A stretch of 6,643 nucleotides of DNA from a virus (Duplodnaviria; Heunggongvirae; Uroviricota; Caudoviricetes). The notes beneath the pieces were generated by a model. That model searched no databases and had not been told where the DNA came from. It saw only the letters and a program-made list of their open reading frames with translations. Each line of letters starts with the position of its first letter. Positions within the stretch are counted from its first letter, which is position 1. The position numbers and the translations under genes were made by a program. Positions 1 to 6,643 of the stretch are shown here, piece after piece. The stretch lies in IMG/VR virus record IMGVR_UViG_2778261696_000002, positions 1 through 6,643 of that record; one strand, given 5' to 3'.

Positions 1-767
1 AGGTCAGCATCGGTGCCGGACTCCTGCAAATCCCAGAAGACGGAGGCGCTGATGCCGGTAACACCGTTTACCCCGACATTGGACAGCGTTTTATGCCAGC
101 CCTGCTCCTGGTCGATTTTAGCGCGCAGACCCAGCGCACGGGCGGTGGCATACGCGGTGGCGGTGGTACTGGTGACCGTATCCCATGCGAGGAAATCCGG
201 CCAGATGACCATCAGCTCACGCTGGCTGAAATTCTGGCGGTAGGCTTTCACCTCGGAAATAGTCTTACAGCCCCATGCGCTGATATATCCGAAAGCGCGC
301 AGCTTCTGACAGACGGATGCCAGTGCAACAGCCACCTCTTTGGTATCCAGTCCCGGCACACCGAGAATACGCGGTTTAACACCAGTTACCGACTCCGCCG
401 CCAGCAGGGCTTTCAGTCCGGTGTACTGACCGTTTTCGTCGGTGGTGCCGATGATATTGGAAACGGTCTGCGCAAGTTTCGTTTCCTCGTCTTCGCCGGT
501 GCCGTCTTCCACACGCACGACAACGGTGACCGGTTTTGACTGGTCAGCGATGGCCTGCAACGATGCTGCCAGCGTGCCTTTTTTACCGGCCTTTGCAATT
601 GCGCTCTGCACATTGGTAATCAGCACCGGTTTATTGAGGGGGAAGGTTTCCGCATCCGCATCGCTAGCCGTACAGACCATGCCGACAACGGCAGTGGATA
701 CGGTGGAAATGACGCGGGTGCCGTCGTTAATCTCCAGCACCTGCACGCCATGATGATAGTCACTCAT
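1..767 (-). CDS. FI: Tail sheath protein, N-terminal about 255 codons (3' end beyond window start)
   Basis: Hand translation of the minus strand from ATG at 767-765 gives MSDYHHGVQVLEINDGTRVISTVSTAVVGMVCTASDADAETFPLNKPVLITNVQSA with no stop down to position 1. This matches the P2 FI N-terminus from memory. GGAG Shine-Dalgarno (reverse complement of 775-778) lies 7 nt upstream of the ATG. Not in the ORF track because no stop is in the window. Confidence 0.9.
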   Translation of the reverse strand, partial: MSDYHHGVQVLEINDGTRVISTVSTAVVGMVCTASDADAETFPLNKPVLITNVQSAIAKAGKKGTLAASLQAIADQSKPVTVVVRVEDGTGEDEETKLAQTVSNIIGTTDENGQYTGLKALLAAESVTGVKPRILGVPGLDTKEVAVALASVCQKLRAFGYISAWGCKTISEVKAYRQNFSQRELMVIWPDFLAWDTVTSTTATAYATARALGLRAKIDQEQGWHKTLSNVGVNGVTGISASVFWDLQESGTDAD

Positions 768-789
768 CCGTTTAACTCCGTGGTTAATG

Positions 790-860
790 GGTGCAACTAT
801 TTTCTGTTGGGCAGTGCATGAGACGCTATTTGACCTGGCTGGTCAGTGGATGAAACAACA
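790..860 (-). promoter_or_regulatory. Candidate late promoter region for the FI operon (PF-like)
   Basis: About 90 bp non-coding between the upstream terminator hairpin and the FI ATG. On the minus strand there is an imperfect TGT-N12-cCA element (about 840-857) and an AAAATA -10-like hexamer (about 799-806) spaced roughly as in Ogr-activated P2 late promoters. Positional inference only; the dyad is imperfect. Confidence 0.25.
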
Positions 861-891
861 GATAAAGAAAAGGCGGGCAATTCGCCCGCCT
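861..891 (-). terminator. Rho-independent terminator candidate ending the J-I-H-G-cargo transcript
   Basis: Plus strand 871-891 aGGCGGGCaattcGCCCGCCt forms an 8-bp GC-rich stem with a 5-nt loop. On the minus strand it is followed immediately by TTTCTTTATC (reverse complement of 861-870). It sits between the cargo gene stop and the FI promoter region. Confidence 0.45.
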
Positions 892-1087
892 GTCCTGATT
901 TGTACTCACTCATTTTCCGACTGACAATTTACATAGCCCAAACGCTATCAATTCTGACAGTCTGCTTTGAGCGAGGAGCGGACGTTGACAACGGTTTATT
1001 CAGTTTATTGAATGAATACTATATCCATTTACCCAGTTCGACCTGACAAACAATGGCATTTTAAAAATTTATCACACAATGATTATT

Positions 1088-2299
1088 TTATATTTTCCTC
1101 AAGGTTGATGTGTTGATACCTTTTATCAATTCATAACGGGGAAAACCTACGGAACACTCATTTAATATGTTCGAATGAGTTGTTACGATGGTTTGAAATG
1201 AAGTCTCAATGGAATTCAATCTTTCAATGTATGGTTTAAAAGATTCCTTTGATAAAAAGGTTTCATTCATTTCTATAAAAAGTAGTGTCGGTGTGTATTT
1301 GGAACGCTCATTTAATGATGCGATTATAACATCCAATAGCACTCTAGTTTTTTCACTTCCAGATAAACACTCGAAAGGCAAATAAGAATCATTACCTTGT
1401 ATCATGCAATAGATATCATGAATATCTCGCTCTTTTTCATCTTCACTATCATCATCCTGTTCCAGCTCTTCCTGAGTAGCAAATCTGATTGATTTAAGTA
1501 TGCCTTTTTTGTTTCTGCATACATAATCAAAAAGACTCTCAAGTAGCACTGGCGATATATTTATGAACTCAGCAAAAAAGTTAGATGTTTTATTATATTT
1601 TTTCTTTGAGTAATTAAAATCAAAAAAATAGCATGCAAAAGGAAAAGGACTTGAGGTAATGTCAAGAGAATCAACTTTATAGGAAATCCTTCCGCTATTT
1701 ACACTCACTTCAATTAAGTGTGGCTCTGGCGTGTGCAAATAAATTTCAATATTGAGCTTTTCACAATTAACCCAGCGCTCAAGTCTATTTATTGCACTGA
1801 CACTTGATAACCACTCGCATATTGCTGTTTTCCCTGCGCCATTACTATCACTCTCAATAATTGTTATTTTTGCAAAGTCGATGCTTATTGAATCTTGAAA
1901 TAAAGGACTATCAACTATTGATAGTTTTGATATCCAATGTAATTTATTGACGATCCTTCCCTGGTGATGTTTAATGAATTCCTCATGATATTTTTTCCAA
2001 CTAATTAGTTGTGATGCGGTAAATCCTGCTCCATTATTTGTATCAACTAACCTTGCGTGTACCTTACATAGCCAAATTCCATTCTCAGGGCTTTTTAACT
2101 GTTCTTCTGTTAGCCCACCTTGCCCTCTGGGGCCATTTTTAGCTGCACTATAAATATGTGATGCCTCACCGATGCTGGATGTCTCATCCTCTTTTTCACC
2201 TGGGCCAATAGTTATTATTGAACATTGAGGATGGCTACATTGGTATCCTGCTCTCCCAGCAAGTACATTCTTTGTTCTTTCTGTGAATTCTACTCTCAT
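1088..2299 (-). CDS. Hypothetical fusion protein: N-terminal HNH-type nuclease domain plus C-terminal ABC-type (AAA_21/SMC-like) P-loop ATPase; candidate anti-phage defence protein
   Basis: Uninterrupted 403-codon ORF with AGGAG Shine-Dalgarno (reverse complement of 2304-2308) 4 nt before the ATG. HNH motifs: C21-x4-C26, E45-A-S-H48-I, N55-G-P-R, N73-G-I-W-L-C78-x2-H81. ATPase motifs: beta-strand ITIIES then P-loop S-N-G-A-G-K157-T, signature-like L312-S-G-S-E, Walker B-like T-L-L-F-I-E343, H-loop T-T-H375-S. Spot counts give about 30-35% GC against about 55% in the flanking phage genes. Function is inferred from motifs, not from a database hit. Confidence 0.8.
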   Translation of the reverse strand: MRVEFTERTKNVLAGRAGYQCSHPQCSIITIGPGEKEDETSSIGEASHIYSAAKNGPRGQGGLTEEQLKSPENGIWLCKVHARLVDTNNGAGFTASQLISWKKYHEEFIKHHQGRIVNKLHWISKLSIVDSPLFQDSISIDFAKITIIESDSNGAGKTAICEWLSSVSAINRLERWVNCEKLNIEIYLHTPEPHLIEVSVNSGRISYKVDSLDITSSPFPFACYFFDFNYSKKKYNKTSNFFAEFINISPVLLESLFDYVCRNKKGILKSIRFATQEELEQDDDSEDEKERDIHDIYCMIQGNDSYLPFECLSGSEKTRVLLDVIIASLNERSKYTPTLLFIEMNETFLSKESFKPYIERLNSIETSFQTIVTTHSNILNECSVGFPRYELIKGINTSTLRKI

Positions 2300-2335
2300 A
2301 AAGCTCCTATAAACCTAAACGTTAATCTCCAGAAC

Positions 2336-2363
2336 ATTTTATGTTCACCTAGCGATGATGCAA
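2336..2363 (-). promoter_or_regulatory. Candidate sigma70 promoter for the cargo gene
   Basis: Minus strand reads TTGCAT (reverse complement of 2358-2363), a 16-nt spacer, then TAAAAT (reverse complement of 2336-2341), about 30 nt upstream of the cargo ATG. Consensus-like by eye only; other AT-rich hexamers nearby are possible alternatives. Confidence 0.3.
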
Positions 2364-2569
2364 GCATGGGAAAACATAGTTTATTCAATTGAACCAACTT
2401 AAAGGTAACTTGCGCTGCATACAAGTATGCATCCTGTTAACAATTTTACAGGCCTCATATACCAGAATTCCTTGAATACGGCATCATTTTAGGTCGATTG
2501 CCGTATGCCGTGCTTCAGACTACCACCCCTCGCAACATCATCCAATATCATACTTGTTACGTCCGCTAT

Positions 2570-2611
2570 TGGCACAGAGCGGACTGTCAGATTAGGCTTT
2601 ACTCTGTGCCA
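2570..2611. repeat. Perfect 10-bp inverted repeat (TGGCACAGAG ... CTCTGTGCCA) with a 22-nt spacer, just downstream of the G stop
   Basis: Read directly: 2570-2579 tggcacagag and 2602-2611 ctctgtgcca are exact reverse complements. No T-tract follows on either strand, so it is not a canonical intrinsic terminator. It lies at the junction between the GC-rich G 3' end and the AT-rich cargo region. Confidence 0.6.
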
Positions 2612-2645
2612 TAGATATGTAAGCTCACACCAGAGTTCATATAAC

Positions 2646-3173
2646 TTATTGCGGCATTTCCGGCCATTCAGGATTTGCAGGATCCACACGGCTGACCAGA
2701 ACACTGTAGCGTTCCCATGCTTCCAGTCGGCTACGCTCCTCATCTGTTGCCATGTTCAGCCTGACAGCGCGCTCCAGTGGCAAAATCACGGATTCAGCAT
2801 CTGCAAGAAGTCTGGCTTTCCGGTTTTCTGCCTGCTGCTGCAATTCCTCTGCCGTATAAATGCGTTTAATCACTGTACCGTCCTTAAACATCCAGTTCCC
2901 TGAAATGTCCGCCCGTCGGTTAGCAGTAATATCCGCCACTTCAACAACACTTAATCCATCCGGTCTGATAGCTGTCACATCCTTTTCCACATAGCGGATG
3001 ATATTATCTTTGTCGTACGCTATTTTTAGCGTGTCATCAGCAAAATACTTTTGTTCTTCGTACCAGTTCTTACCATCTTCTGAAAAAAACCAGACAACAT
3101 CAAAGTCTTTTGTCAATTGATATTGTTCAACCGTTTTTGGATTACCCGCCGTAATATTTTTTAAATGCTGCAT
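2646..3173 (-). CDS. G: Tail fibre assembly protein (Tfa/chaperone)
   Basis: 175-aa ORF starting [22 protein letters not shown] and ending ...[41 protein letters not shown], matching the P2 gpG/Tfa family from memory. The ATG at 3173-3171 lies 3 nt after the H stop. Located directly downstream of the tail fibre gene. Confidence 0.9.
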
Positions 3174-3176
3174 AAA

Positions 3177-5306
3177 TTATACCTGCGCCACGTTATACCA
3201 TGTCCCGTTAATGTATTTCTGAACCGGTCTGTAATATACACCACCAATGTTATCGGCAGAGTTTGAGCCGGTATCCTGAACAATAATGCCGGAATATACA
3301 CACCCGGACGGTGCCTGATGTGTCCATGTCATGCCATTGTTCGCAGGTTTGTATGTGGCAGCACCACCAAGCCGGATATCCCGGACATAGCGGGAATCAA
3401 AGTTACCGTAATCCGAGGGATTAACACGCCCCGTAATATTTATGGTTTTATTACTTTGAATGCTACCGGAGACAAAGCGCATAACATGGACGTTATTAGC
3501 ATAAACATCCAGATTACCGTCGCCATTTTGTTTAAAGCCCGTGTCATTATCACCCAAAACAATCGAGTTACCGCCAAGAGCACTGGATGTACCGATGCCC
3601 AGTGCACCATTCAATTGACCTCCAGATAATGATAACGCCCCAACATCAGCAGCAGTCGGTTTAATGTGCGAACTGTAAATTACATATACAGTTCCATCTG
3701 TCAGGCCTGTTGGTTTATTCGCTGTATAAGTTGGTGATGTATGAATCGTTACGCTGGCGTTACTGGTATAATCCCACTGAATATTAACACCTGTGGCGTA
3801 ATTACCTATTTCAACATAAACATCATAGGTATCACCGGATGTATTCACCCATGCAAAATTAGTAAATCCAACCGAGGTCCGTCGCCATAACGCACCAGTA
3901 AGACCTTTTGGATTTCCATTTCCCGCACGAAGAACAAGTTCAGATATACCAGCCTGCATAGGGGAGTTAACATTATATCCGGCACCACCAATCAGACTTA
4001 TGTAAACCACGGAACTGGCCTGTGGCATGGTTACAGTTGCCAGCCTGAACCATCCTGTACCACCACTAAAAGACATGGTTGTTGAATTTGTTGCTCCAAT
4101 ATTGCGCAGGAATAATCTTTTATCAGGAATATCCGCGCCATTTTGATCTTTCTGAAGACGTTTTTCAGCATTGTCATAGGCAGACTTCACCGCTTTTGGT
4201 GTTGCGGCCAGCGTTTCCGAATCACTGTTGGTGGCGCTACTGAGCTGGACAAGACCTTTTCGCGCTGTGGTGGCGTCCTGTGCGGTATATTTCCCGTTAG
4301 CAAGGTCATACGCTGTCTTAACCGCCTTTGGCGTTGCAGCCAGCGTTTCAGAATCGCTGTTTGTGGCGCTACTGAGCTGGACAAGACCTTTTCGCGCTGT
4401 GGTGGCATCCTGTGCGGTATATTTCCCGTTAGCGAGGTCATATGCTGCCTTTACCGCCTTTGGCGTTGCCGCAAGCGTTTCAGAATCACTGTTGGTGGCG
4501 CTACTGAGCTGGACAAGACCTTTTCGCGCTGTGGTGGCATCCTGTGCAGTGTATTTCCCGTTAGCAAGGTCATATGCTGCTTTTACCGCTTTTGGTGTTG
4601 CGGCGAGCGTTTCAGACGTGCTGTTGGTGGCACTACTGAGCTGGACAAGACCTTTTCGCGCTGTGGTAGCGTCCTGTGCGGTATATTTCCCGTTAGCCAG
4701 GTCATATGCGGCCTTAACCGCTTTCGGCGTTGCAGCCAGTGTTTCAGACGTGCTGTTGGTCGCACTGCTTAACTGAGTAAAACCTTTTGCGGTCAGCGAG
4801 GCGTCCGGGTGACGTCGTGACTGTTCATGTTCTGCAATTTTGTCATCAACGTAATCCTGCGTCGCCATCACCGTTGTGGTGTCAATGGTCAGCTCCACTG
4901 AGGTCACACTGCTGACGATGATGACCATACGGCAGGTCTGCGAACGCCCTGAGCCTTCGGCAAGAGCTGGCTTATAACTTTCGGCCATGTTCGCCACGGC
5001 AATTAACGTTCCAGCATCATCGTACAGGCCAAGCTCACGCATCCAGAAACCGCCCACCTCCGGCGGAATAACCAGCTCTGCGATAATATAATTACTGTTT
5101 CGTTTGTCCTGGCTGATTTTGTTCAGCGCATGTCGCCAGACTTCGTGGATAAGCCCGGTCTGTCCGGCATCCGGGACAGGCAATTTACCACCGCCATCCC
5201 CGACGGCCATCGTGGTAATGTTGATCTTCCGCCCTCCCGGCGCGGTTGCCGCTGCCAGCTTTGCTGCACCGGCAGTGGTGATAACGGTTCTGAATTTTGT
5301 GCTCAT
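3177..5306 (-). CDS. H: Tail fibre protein with five tandem phage-tail-fibre repeats and a distal receptor-binding region
   Basis: 709-aa ORF. N-terminus MSTKFRTVITTAGAAKLAAATAPGG is typical of P2 gpH-type fibres. GAGGA ribosome-binding site precedes the ATG at 5306-5304. Contains repeated units TAQDATTARKGLVQLSSATNS(T/D)SETLAATPKAVKAAYDLANGKY. The C-terminal third is Gly/Asn/Thr-rich, as in fibre tips. Confidence 0.9.
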   Translation of the reverse strand: MSTKFRTVITTAGAAKLAAATAPGGRKINITTMAVGDGGGKLPVPDAGQTGLIHEVWRHALNKISQDKRNSNYIIAELVIPPEVGGFWMRELGLYDDAGTLIAVANMAESYKPALAEGSGRSQTCRMVIIVSSVTSVELTIDTTTVMATQDYVDDKIAEHEQSRRHPDASLTAKGFTQLSSATNSTSETLAATPKAVKAAYDLANGKYTAQDATTARKGLVQLSSATNSTSETLAATPKAVKAAYDLANGKYTAQDATTARKGLVQLSSATNSDSETLAATPKAVKAAYDLANGKYTAQDATTARKGLVQLSSATNSDSETLAATPKAVKTAYDLANGKYTAQDATTARKGLVQLSSATNSDSETLAATPKAVKSAYDNAEKRLQKDQNGADIPDKRLFLRNIGATNSTTMSFSGGTGWFRLATVTMPQASSVVYISLIGGAGYNVNSPMQAGISELVLRAGNGNPKGLTGALWRRTSVGFTNFAWVNTSGDTYDVYVEIGNYATGVNIQWDYTSNASVTIHTSPTYTANKPTGLTDGTVYVIYSSHIKPTAADVGALSLSGGQLNGALGIGTSSALGGNSIVLGDNDTGFKQNGDGNLDVYANNVHVMRFVSGSIQSNKTINITGRVNPSDYGNFDSRYVRDIRLGGAATYKPANNGMTWTHQAPSGCVYSGIIVQDTGSNSADNIGGVYYRPVQKYINGTWYNVAQV
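4176..4793 (-). repeat. In-frame tandem repeat, 132-bp period (44 aa), about 4.7 copies, inside gene H
   Basis: The string tgagctggacaagacc recurs at 4241, 4373 and 4505, and as tgagctggacaagacc again at 4637, exactly 132 bp apart. The fifth (N-proximal, 4765-4793) copy keeps the protein sequence but uses different codons. Only a few substitutions separate the units (for example T/D and A/T/S in the protein). Confidence 0.85.
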
Positions 5307-5316
5307 TATTCCTCAC

Positions 5317-5847
5317 TTATCCGGGGTAAACCGTAATTACATCGCCGTCGTAAGCCACACAACCGGCGAACAGGTAGCCGGGAATGTCCCGGGTAATGTT
5401 CAGGCCAATAAGGTGGCGGCTTGCAGGTTTGGCATCGGCAATCAGCCGTTCCATTTCCTGATACATTGCCTCCGTGATGCCGCTTTCCAGTACACCAATA
5501 TCAAGCCGGAAGGTGCCTGGCGGGTCACTGTTTTCCCACCACTCCGTCACGTTGATGAGATAGCCGAGCGGCTCCACCACACGCCGGATTGCGCCGATAG
5601 TGCCTTTATGACAGTGGATGAAATAGGCATCGCGAATAACGGCGCGTTTGGTCGCTTCCGGCCACTTTTCATCCCACCTGTCGACCGAAAACGCCCACGC
5701 CAGCCACGGCAGCAGATTTCCCGGGCAGGTGTCCGGGTTCCACAGTTCACGAATACTGACCGGCGTTTTTTCAATTTCCGCACAGGCTTTTGCGGCAGCA
5801 ATTTCAAGCGGTGATGAGCCGGTCGGCAGCAGGCGCGAATCACTCAT
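5317..5847 (-). CDS. I: Baseplate assembly protein
   Basis: 176-aa ORF MSDSRLLPTGSSPLEIAAAKACAEIEK..., the same length and N-terminus as P2 gpI from memory. Its ATG lies inside ATGAGTGA, overlapping the stop of J. Its stop is 10 nt before the H ATG. Confidence 0.9.
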   Translation of the reverse strand: MSDSRLLPTGSSPLEIAAAKACAEIEKTPVSIRELWNPDTCPGNLLPWLAWAFSVDRWDEKWPEATKRAVIRDAYFIHCHKGTIGAIRRVVEPLGYLINVTEWWENSDPPGTFRLDIGVLESGITEAMYQEMERLIADAKPASRHLIGLNITRDIPGYLFAGCVAYDGDVITVYPG

Positions 5848-6643
5848 CCGAGCCTCCGGTCACGACGCGGTATTCGGTACAGAAAGACGCCTGCGTACTG
5901 TTGAGCACAATGTCGGCCAGTGGTGCGGCCAGCTCGACACGCTGCACGCCTTCCACATGCAAAGCGGCATAAATGGCAGACAGACGGATGTCGCGCCCCA
6001 GCCGGTGCTGCGCCGTGATGTACGCTTCCAGTTTTTTCACGGCAGCAGCGCGGATGGGTTCGCTTTCGGGACCAGGGTAAAGGTAAAGCGTGGCGTTTAT
6101 CTGGTATTCAACAATGGCGGCAGACTGCACGGTCACGCGGTCGGCCACCGGCCTGACGTCCTCGCCATTAAGGGCGTTACGCACCACGGCCAGCAGGTCT
6201 TCGGATGCCACACCGTTATTTTCACGTGACAGCACAGAGATGGTGACGCAGGCCGGAGACAGACTGGTGACAGAAATATCCGCGACACGCCCGTCGGCAC
6301 TGCGACCATGATACTGATAGGCCCCCACCGACCCGGCGACGCTTAAACCTTCAAACGCCTGCTGAATACGCAGACGATAATCAGTATCAGATTCCATCAC
6401 TGCCGGTGTCGGCGGGATGGTCGAATCGTCTGCCGGGGTGATAATCAGGCGTGTGGTGTTGTAATTGGCACCAATCACATCAAGGTCATTACCGGCGGCA
6501 CAGGCCAGCATTACCGCCCGTGCTGCCTCATTCACACGCTGACGCCAGATAAGCTCACGATAAGCATTTTCCTCCAGCAGTTTGACGAGAGGCTCGGATT
6601 CCAGCGTCAGGGTACGGGCGACCGCCTCCTGCTGGTCTTCCGG
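5840..6643 (-). CDS. J: Baseplate assembly protein J, C-terminal 267 codons (5' end beyond window end)
   Basis: The reading frame is open from the window edge (6643) to the TGA at 5842-5840. The track starts it at an internal Met (6535), but the frame continues upstream. Sequence ...NEAARAVMLACAAGNDLDVIGANY... matches P2 gpJ from memory. P2 J is about 302 aa, so about 35 N-terminal codons are off-window. Confidence 0.88.
   Translation of the reverse strand, partial: PEDQQEAVARTLTLESEPLVKLLEENAYRELIWRQRVNEAARAVMLACAAGNDLDVIGANYNTTRLIITPADDSTIPPTPAVMESDTDYRLRIQQAFEGLSVAGSVGAYQYHGRSADGRVADISVTSLSPACVTISVLSRENNGVASEDLLAVVRNALNGEDVRPVADRVTVQSAAIVEYQINATLYLYPGPESEPIRAAAVKKLEAYITAQHRLGRDIRLSAIYAALHVEGVQRVELAAPLADIVLNSTQASFCTEYRVVTGGSDE

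Follow-up and report, generated by a model that had tools for sequence, protein, structure and literature searches.

The DNA analysed here, a 6,643-nt stretch of a Caudoviricetes record (IMG/VR IMGVR_UViG_2778261696_000002, positions 1 to 6,643; hereafter the window), consists of the J-I-H-G/FI tail region of a P2-like prophage, in which every gene lies on the minus strand. Between genes G and FI it carries a 1.6-kb cassette (positions 960–2584) delimited by two 24-bp palindromes, and the cassette contains one gene, whose product joins an HNH domain to an ABC ATPase. We regard the cassette as an accessory element of the P2 G-FI hotspot, and its gene as probably a one-protein anti-phage system; as judged from sequence features, this cargo most likely acts as a one-gene abortive-infection defence. 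We further propose, tentatively, that recombination at the palindromes belongs to an integron-like system of cassette exchange that has so far gone unrecognised, with the cargo being a new single-protein HNH-ABC immune nuclease.

When the window was compared with six P2-like phages carrying other cargos, homology on the FI side ended at 986/987 and on the G side resumed at 2552–2573. The top inverted repeat of the region, with 33-nt arms at 953–985 and 2559–2591 that are 82% complementary, lies at these breakpoints, and each arm contains one of the palindromes, referred to as the L-site (FI side) and the R-site (G side). A copy of the cassette in Salmonella enterica, 98.6% identical, extends from 2584 to 960 exactly, that is, from palindrome to palindrome. 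Given both homology limits, the 24-bp sites are the sole sequence common to elements with the same cargo in another context and elements with the same context and another cargo. An original prediction made from the sequence of the window alone had placed the breakpoints near an inverted repeat at 2570–2611 and a hairpin at 871–891. The first of these was borne out, as the right-hand breakpoint adjoins the inverted repeat, whereas the left-hand breakpoint lies about 95 nt away from the hairpin, towards the cargo. The 871–891 hairpin is instead a conserved backbone terminator, situated within a block common to Wphi, P2, 12474III, P24C9, P2_AC1 and P2-EC67.

The R- and L-sites share the same arms (GTCCGC/GCGGAC) and differ in their centres, which are TGTGCCAA on the G side and CTCGCTCA on the FI side. 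Both follow an 8-8-8 layout, with 8-bp inverted arms, a conserved asymmetric 8-bp centre, and the junction between backbone and cargo at the edge of the centre; inverted arms, an asymmetric centre of 6–8 bp and exchange at the centre are the features of a tyrosine-recombinase core-type site. The phage-facing half of each site travels with the backbone and the cargo-facing half with the cargo, so exchange occurs inside the sites. The site sequences were not found in the open literature searched, and comparison of the long spacers with Rfam returned only sub-threshold noise.

Beyond P2, the Salmonella copy follows a P4-type integrase at ychF, from which 48 nt separate it. A Serratia fonticola copy (87% identical) is situated beside an Rhs gene and a tyrosine recombinase remnant, and a Proteus mirabilis copy (88.6% identical) lies in a non-P2 prophage, after int-dinI. 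The presence of the cassette in these three genera is direct evidence of its horizontal movement. On the Serratia contig (L014), the remnant is a 65-codon tyrosine recombinase C-terminus (HSIRRT...LLGY...VRYLG; 7506–7700) just upstream of the cassette, and the downstream L-site is followed at once by a degenerate R-like site (TCTGACAGCCTTGTGCCAGGACCGGAAGT; 9299–9365). On the Proteus contig (L015), a copy of the extended G-side element directly follows dinI (6265–6339). This element keeps the long hairpin stem by compensatory change, reading GGCACAGACC/GGTCTGTGCC where the window has GGCACAGAG/CTCTGTGCC, which suggests that the 2570–2611 hairpin is itself under structural constraint.

The cassette coincides with a sharp compositional island. 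In 200-nt windows, GC content was 0.30–0.37 across 901–2100, compared with 0.51–0.61 in the flanks, and a maximum-likelihood segmentation of positions 1–3200 with two GC breakpoints placed the island at 995–2490 (0.346 inside, 0.511 outside; log-likelihood ratio 44). The open reading frame (ORF) at 1088–2299 has a GC content of 0.350, a third-position GC content (GC3) of 0.275 and a codon adaptation index (CAI) of 0.41, with the phage structural genes as the CAI reference set; the corresponding values for FI, I and J are 0.56–0.59, 0.62–0.66 and 0.75. The deviation that the original prediction expected from sliding-window GC and codon-usage analysis is therefore present and large. Its figure of 18–35% GC for 60-nt stretches was too narrow, however: GC is low, as it said, and 60-nt windows in the ORF span 0.18–0.47, the least AT-rich part being the HNH-coding 5′ part, where single windows reach 0.47. 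Similarly, G (0.451) and the 3′ half of H (0.444) are themselves lower in GC than the backbone, so that the island stands out most against the 5′ half of H and the genes I, J and FI, which are GC-rich as it stated.

The spacing of genes sets the island apart as well. From the G stop (2646) to the ORF start (2299) there are 346 nt, and beyond the ORF stop (1088) the terminator hairpin follows after 196 nt and the start of FI (767) after 320 nt, so that the unusually long non-coding flanks estimated at first (about 345 and 195 bp) agree with the measured lengths. The structural genes overlap or abut, again as predicted, with an 8-nt overlap between J and I and gaps of 10 nt between I and H and 3 nt between H and G. 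Taken together with its rarity and the occurrence of the same cassette in non-P2 elements, the foreign composition supports the view that the gene is a horizontally acquired moron.

The slot between G and FI is the long-known Z/fun hotspot of P2-like phages. The locus type is thus an ordinary, already described one and no new kind of insertion; the moron reading was right, and the phenomenon was already known from prior descriptions of the hotspot. In its G-FI position, non-homologous content, flanking inverted repeats, low GC and atypical codons, the cassette is a member of the Z/fun cargo class, whose other occupants include fun(Z) in P2, orf44 in Wphi, an SMEK protein, HAD+NUDIX, DUF6615 and a Shedu nuclease. 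Vassallo et al. 2022 (PMC9519451) described a second defence-enriched P2 locus holding fun and three new systems, the iLund4u preprint (bioRxiv 10.1101/2024.10.15.618418) and a 2026 survey of P2 and P4 both report a hotspot in the same tail-gene region, and in the GenBank entry for the P2-EC67 Z-region (AJ512685) the cargo is shown with an inverted repeat to its left and another to its right, as well as with a promoter and a ribosome-binding site. The particular gene found here is rare. Phage records match only the ends of the G-FI stretch (768–2645; 16% coverage), and the cargo gene was present in no record of the phage collection searched. Among 5426 complete Escherichia coli genomes, 1033 share the ends of the stretch and 10 share all of it, which bears out the expectation that the gene is not universal in P2-like phages. 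In two P2-like viral contigs (L025, 6001–6333; L026, 2196–2528), a different Cap5-type HNH protein, encoded on the opposite strand, occupies the G-FI slot; it shows 40% identity to the cargo protein over residues 2–110 only.

The N-terminal part of the cargo protein (residues 2–122) matches the PADLOC models of the HNH effector of the cyclic-oligonucleotide-based anti-phage signalling system (CBASS) and of PDC-M68A, with E values of 1e-17 to 4e-22. Among Protein Data Bank profiles, the HNH domain matches SPARHA HNH-APAZ (9om4, 1e-19) and Cap5 (7rwk, 1e-14), and the C-terminal remainder matches SMC, Rad50 and PtuA heads. An AlphaFold2 model had a predicted local distance difference test score of 84; the top Foldseek matches were SMC heads, with retron and Septu PtuA among the folds found. 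In a 43-member alignment, C21, C26, H48, N73, C78, G156, K157 and Q369 are invariant and H81 nearly so, and C21, C26, H48, N73 and C78, together with H81, correspond to the zinc and catalytic set of a Cap5/SPARHA-type HNH. The ATPase part carries a Walker A motif (GAGKT at 154), a signature motif (SGSEK at 313) and FQTIVTTH at 368–375 (Q369...H375), the Walker A, signature and Q..H combination of SMC/Rad50/RecN-type ATPases. The Walker B motif reads LLFIEMNE; its acid, E here, gives way to Asn in some subclades or is missing from them, and the catalytic Glu is absent. No long coiled coil was found in the AlphaFold2 secondary structure, so that the Walker B Glu and coiled coil of SMC/Rad50/RecN proteins are both lacking. 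Family-wide conservation extends to Q369, the Lys of Walker A and the Ser of the signature motif, but not to the acid of Walker B, the catalytic Glu or the His of the H-loop; the enterobacterial subclade retains this His (TTHS). Because Walker A and the signature are kept while the catalytic acid and H-loop are degenerate, the ATPase is likely to serve ATP binding and dimerisation rather than to act as a motor.

The family itself is sizeable. A profile of the full-length protein returned 815 representative clusters (50% identity) at E<=1e-30, from many Proteobacteria and several prophages. With an ATPase-only profile, relatives were found in Pseudomonas, Pectobacterium, Burkholderia, Ralstonia and Vibrio, and 10 of the 10 tested carry the same HNH; a swappable effector on a common ATPase module accordingly found no support. 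A split-gene form was also rejected, since the homologues of about 250 amino acids (P0032 and P0069) are N-terminal truncations and not separate ATPase genes. A contig search with the protein alignment returned HNH-domain relatives that lack the ATPase. The gene is always solitary and lies in surroundings of a variable, mobile or conflict type, where its neighbours include integrases, insertion sequence elements, toxin-antitoxin genes, Fic genes and Rhs/PAAR genes.

These features suggest how the protein might work. The HNH domains of Cap5 and SPARHA are inactive as monomers or dimers and cleave double-stranded DNA indiscriminately once tetramerised, and the same HNH clade is joined to many different sensor platforms (PMC12738770). 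In the cargo protein, the minimal ABC head would be such a platform, serving as a nucleotide-dependent switch or sensor. ATP-dependent engagement of the heads, or its loss on infection, would control oligomerisation of the HNH domains; DNA cleavage would then lead to abortive infection, protecting the lysogen population and the prophage from competing phages. ATP could act as an activator or as an inhibitor, the latter being its role for Septu PtuAB. Expression in the lysogen would start from a weak promoter at 2363–2336 and a good ribosome-binding site at 2308–2304, and the transcript would end at the backbone terminator (891–871). The candidate promoter is retained in the Salmonella copy, and from these signals we infer that regulation of the cargo may be independent, as originally suggested. 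No terminator turned up when the stretch separating G from the ORF was scanned, and late read-through into the cargo is thus possible as well.

Two other functional readings were weighed against a one-protein anti-phage system. The ATPase fold is nearest to SMC/Rad50/RecF heads, the protein over its whole length matches no validated defence model, and part of the hotspot cargo is non-defensive, all of which would fit a gene that is not anti-phage, such as a selfish or housekeeping nuclease-ATPase (SbcC/RecN-like repair), an addiction module or a factor of the phage itself. We consider this unlikely: the protein lacks both a coiled coil and a partner of the Mre11/SbcD kind, its gene stands alone and is patchily distributed (10 of the 5426 E. 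coli genomes), and the HNH falls in the CBASS/SPARHA effector clade, not among homing or repair types. Most P2-like phages lack the gene, which is therefore dispensable for P2. Nor is the protein the enzyme that mobilises the cassette, given that 35 other cargos lie between the same sites.

It is still less probable, in our view decidedly so, that the protein is a fused Septu, with a PtuA ATPase and a PtuB HNH working in the same way. An ABC ATPase together with an HNH is the Septu combination, retron PtuA structures are among the fold matches, and weak PtuA matches were obtained from PADLOC (5e-4, over 44 residues) and NCBIfam (0.005). Yet the NCBIfam PtuA match scores 15.8 bits against a cut-off of 500, the HNH comes first in the chain, the ATPase is about half the size of PtuA, and a single ORF replaces the two genes of Septu. 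The HNH belongs to the Cap5/SPARHA clade (1e-17 to 1e-22), and no PtuB model was among the PADLOC matches. A one-protein anti-phage system thus remains the reading we prefer.

The palindromes recur far beyond this cassette. Viral contigs were scanned with the backbone half of the R-site as query, which identified 80 P2-like loci, 60 of them with both sites; at the slot of these 60 contigs there are 35 unrelated cargos of 0.8–5.8 kb with GC contents of 0.32–0.48. A conservation profile in which each of the 35 cargos had a single representative showed no variation in the backbone halves, which for the R-site is partly forced by the search pattern. The cargo-side arms are 80–90% conserved (rrAGCGGACrTT ... 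AAyGTCCGCTyy), and sequence beyond the arms is random. Paired inner arms are reverse complements and often co-vary (GCAGACATT with AATGTCTGC, GCGGAAGT with ACTTCCGC). Larger cargos contain internal R-sites or a junction in which an L-site is followed, 19 nt on, by an R-site.

A similar arrangement is found next to the ychF integrase of E. coli 1428 (NZ_CP023366.1; 1832–8358). Four R-type sites in the same orientation (1832, 3084, 3814 and 7014) separate units of one to three genes, and an L-type site at 8292 is followed after 19 nt by another R-type site; 7 sites were observed, compared with 0.6 in shuffled sequence. This array is an integron-like layout beside a tyrosine integrase. The ychF-island integrase occurs in 640 E. 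coli genomes, and among the matches listed, homology to the Salmonella island reaches no further than the first site, ending either where that site begins or where it ends. Wherever the sites were seen in the enterobacterial loci covered here, they marked the boundary of a cargo in a mobile element. The site centre contains GTGCCAA, the same sequence as the core of the shufflon sfx sites used by the tyrosine recombinase Rci (PMC4176322); we take this match as a lead and not as a test.

In a metagenome scan, GTCCGCNNNGTGCCANNAGCGGAC was found in at least 120 contigs, mostly from soil, with GC contents of 0.40–0.66; P2 flanks were present at 8 of 135 sites among the matches listed. In the soil metagenomes, the R-type palindrome (GTCCGC-nnnGTGCCAnn-AGCGGAC) forms doublets with a second palindrome, TTTACCCCCAAAAGCGGACAT...ATGTCCGCTTTGTGCCAAAAGCGGACAT, which lies about 20 nt upstream and has another centre. 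These doublets recur every 1–4 kb (contigs L182–L299, e.g. L246, L251 and L268), and in the two soil contigs that are annotated, ordinary transport, redox, signalling and metabolic genes lie between them. They look like repetitive extragenic palindromes (REP) or bacterial interspersed mosaic elements (BIME), and because of these copies the site belongs to a wider REP-like palindrome family. It is accordingly possible, rather than probable, that the palindromes of the cassette are REP-like short homology anchors or fragile hairpins, and that cargos are swapped by rare RecA- or phage-mediated recombination or by replication slippage. The abundance of the doublets, flanking genes typical of REP/BIME-like repeats, the lack of a common neighbouring recombinase at the enterobacterial copies, and the silence of the 2026 P2/P4 survey on a mechanism of defence turnover all agree with such a reading. 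On the other side, the shared stretch, at only 24–33 nt, does not exceed the shortest length that RecA usually requires, and yet the exchange points fall inside it in every comparison; the 8-8-8 layout with the junction at the centre edge is the arrangement of a tyrosine-recombinase core site; and the centre holds the sfx core. Owing to the core-site-like layout and the junction position, we favour site-specific exchange as somewhat more likely than REP-type anchoring.

Under the exchange system proposed here, R-type sites (centre GTGCCA) would part the cassettes and the L-type site (centre CTCGCTCA) would close the array. AT-rich defence cassettes would be shuttled among the P2 hotspot, the ychF islands of E. 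coli and Salmonella and other prophages such as that of Proteus, by a recombinase acting in trans that may be host-encoded, on sites related to the palindrome family of soil Proteobacteria. Inverted-repeat-flanked exchange at the Z/fun locus was reportedly proposed by Nilsson et al. in 2004, and this idea of site-specific exchange seems to have gone from the recent literature on defence hotspots. The site grammar, which refines the 2004 proposal as far as a review conveys it, is the most interesting by-product of the analysis. Relative to that proposal as summarised in the review, the additions are the 24-bp R/L layout, the internal R-sites, the L-19nt-R junctions and the integrase-side arrays.

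Several points weigh against these proposals. No recombinase common to the non-P2 copies was found beside them; the adjoining integrases are mutually unrelated, so that no dedicated recombinase can be named. A shared dedicated recombinase was thus rejected as a candidate, as the Serratia remnant is related neither to the integrase of the ychF island nor to that of Proteus, and these two intact integrases, about 21% identical, are unrelated to each other. As for function, Pfam, NCBIfam and PADLOC all lack a model that matches the entire protein above threshold, the neighbourhoods of distant homologues are conflict-like and not classic defence islands, and some cargo at the hotspot is non-defensive (HAD+NUDIX, toxins). 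With regard to expression, a consensus promoter scan upstream of the ORF yielded nothing that passed, the candidate promoter falling below the cut-off, and the AT-rich DNA of the island may be silenced by H-NS.

Positions of the cassette, its sites and the surrounding backbone features in the window are listed below.

Table 1. Features of the window, ordered by position
Feature	Positions	Strand	Basis or remarks
FI 5′ part, tail sheath (ATG 767–765, off left window end)	3..767	minus	Pfam Phage_sheath_1 + Gp18_domIII_N
Backbone upstream of FI, late F-operon promoter region	768..870	minus	kept in 6/6 P2-like comparators
Intrinsic terminator hairpin, 9-bp stem, 7 GC pairs, then T run	871..891	minus	terminator scan
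L-site, FI-side cassette end, 24-bp palindrome GTCCGCTC-CTCGCTCA-AAGCAGAC	960..983	minus	within arm 953–985
3′ non-coding cassette part	984..1087	minus	common to Salmonella, Serratia and Proteus copies; not other P2 phages
Cargo gene, 403 amino acids: N-terminal HNH (about 2–122) and ABC ATPase (about 123–403)	1088..2299	minus	
Ribosome-binding site AGGAG, 4 nt before ATG	2304..2308	minus	by sequence
Candidate sigma-70 promoter TTGCAT, 16-nt spacer, TAAAAT	2336..2363	minus	by eye; scores 8/12
R-site, G-side cassette end, 24-bp palindrome GTCCGCTC-TGTGCCAA-TAGCGGAC	2561..2584	minus	within arm 2559–2591
Backbone hairpin GGCACAGAG...CTCTGTGCC, overlaps R-site	2570..2611	minus	sequence
G, tail fibre assembly gene	3173–2646	minus	Pfam Caudo_TAP, 1.5e-34
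H, tail fibre gene	5306–3177	minus	Pfam Phage_tail_fib + five Phage_fiber_2 repeats
I	5847–5317	minus	
J	..6535–5840	minus	

The backbone is that of a typical P2-like phage. By megablast against phage records, the structural genes are 92–94% identical to those of P2, Wphi, L-413C and other Peduovirus, FI DNA is 95% identical to FI of P2-like phages, and the best coverage of the window by any single phage record is <=64%. The identical sequence is present in E. coli EC12, as part of a full P2-like prophage adjoining yegQ/ogrK. For the equivalent of 768–870, the P2 record annotates an activator-binding site and the F-operon start, whose positions are approximate here. In the regions 2900–4200 and 4140–4800, G (0.451 GC) and the 3′ half of H (0.444) lie below the other tail genes in GC, and H contains five tandem Phage_fiber_2 repeats of about 42 amino acids each; the low GC and the repeats would fit the mosaic exchange for which tail-fibre modules are known. 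Two further loci of the EC12 prophage carry additional genes: an ATP-binding protein and SIR2 anti-phage-associated pair lies in the portal/replication (old-tin) hotspot (37415–40481), and an opposite-strand hypothetical gene lies between the baseplate gene V and a virion morphogenesis gene (27049–27834). Neither of these loci has the R/L palindromes, and the G-FI pair was the only occurrence found across the 42 kb of the EC12 prophage region.

The sizeable, unnamed family that combines an HNH of the CBASS/SPARHA kind with a minimal ABC ATPase offers a cheap single-gene candidate for defence screening, and the cargo protein a compact model for an ABC head that gates a nuclease. Since the exchange points are mapped to two 24-bp palindromes and integrase-side arrays are available, hopping of defence genes becomes testable. 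If the proposed exchange system is real, it would provide a mechanism for the fast swapping of defence systems between unrelated mobile elements that the 2026 P2/P4 survey left unexplained.

Compared with known defence systems, the cargo protein resembles CBASS Cap5 and SPARHA HNH-APAZ in its homologous HNH, with the same Cys/His zinc residues and the catalytic His and Asn; unlike them, it has an ABC ATPase in place of SAVED or APAZ and no cyclase or Argonaute partner. Neither a SAVED domain nor an adjacent CD-NTase was present, the C-terminus being the ABC ATPase and the cassette having no second gene. With Septu (PtuAB), Gabija (GajA), PARIS (AriAB) and OLD it shares an ABC-type ATPase governing a nuclease and weak ATPase similarity in sequence and fold. 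It differs from these systems in being a single 403-amino-acid chain with an N-terminal HNH, below every family threshold, and in its much smaller ATPase with degenerate Walker B and H-loop; PADLOC gave no TOPRIM match and weak matches to the ATPase regions of GajA and AriA. As far as its domains indicate, the cargo is a new and so far uncharacterised addition to the candidate defence genes that pair an ATPase with a nuclease.

As an insertion, it is like P2 fun(Z) in its G-FI slot, AT-rich foreign cargo with its own expression signals, inverted-repeat flanks and occurrence of the cargo also in bacterial chromosomes, whereas the protein bears no relation to Fun(Z) and is encoded in the same direction as the tail genes. 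The sites differ from those of shufflons, as no Rci lies near them here. As in integron attC/cassette exchange, gene cassettes are bounded by short imperfect palindromes and form arrays beside a tyrosine integrase (E. coli 1428). Unlike in integrons, the sites measure 24 bp and not 57–141 bp, and there is no GTTRRRY core and no IntI; identity with attC is excluded by the site length and the absent core, and the adjoining integrases are P4-type or other. In having equal arms and different centres, the R- and L-sites resemble heterospecific lox/FRT pairs.

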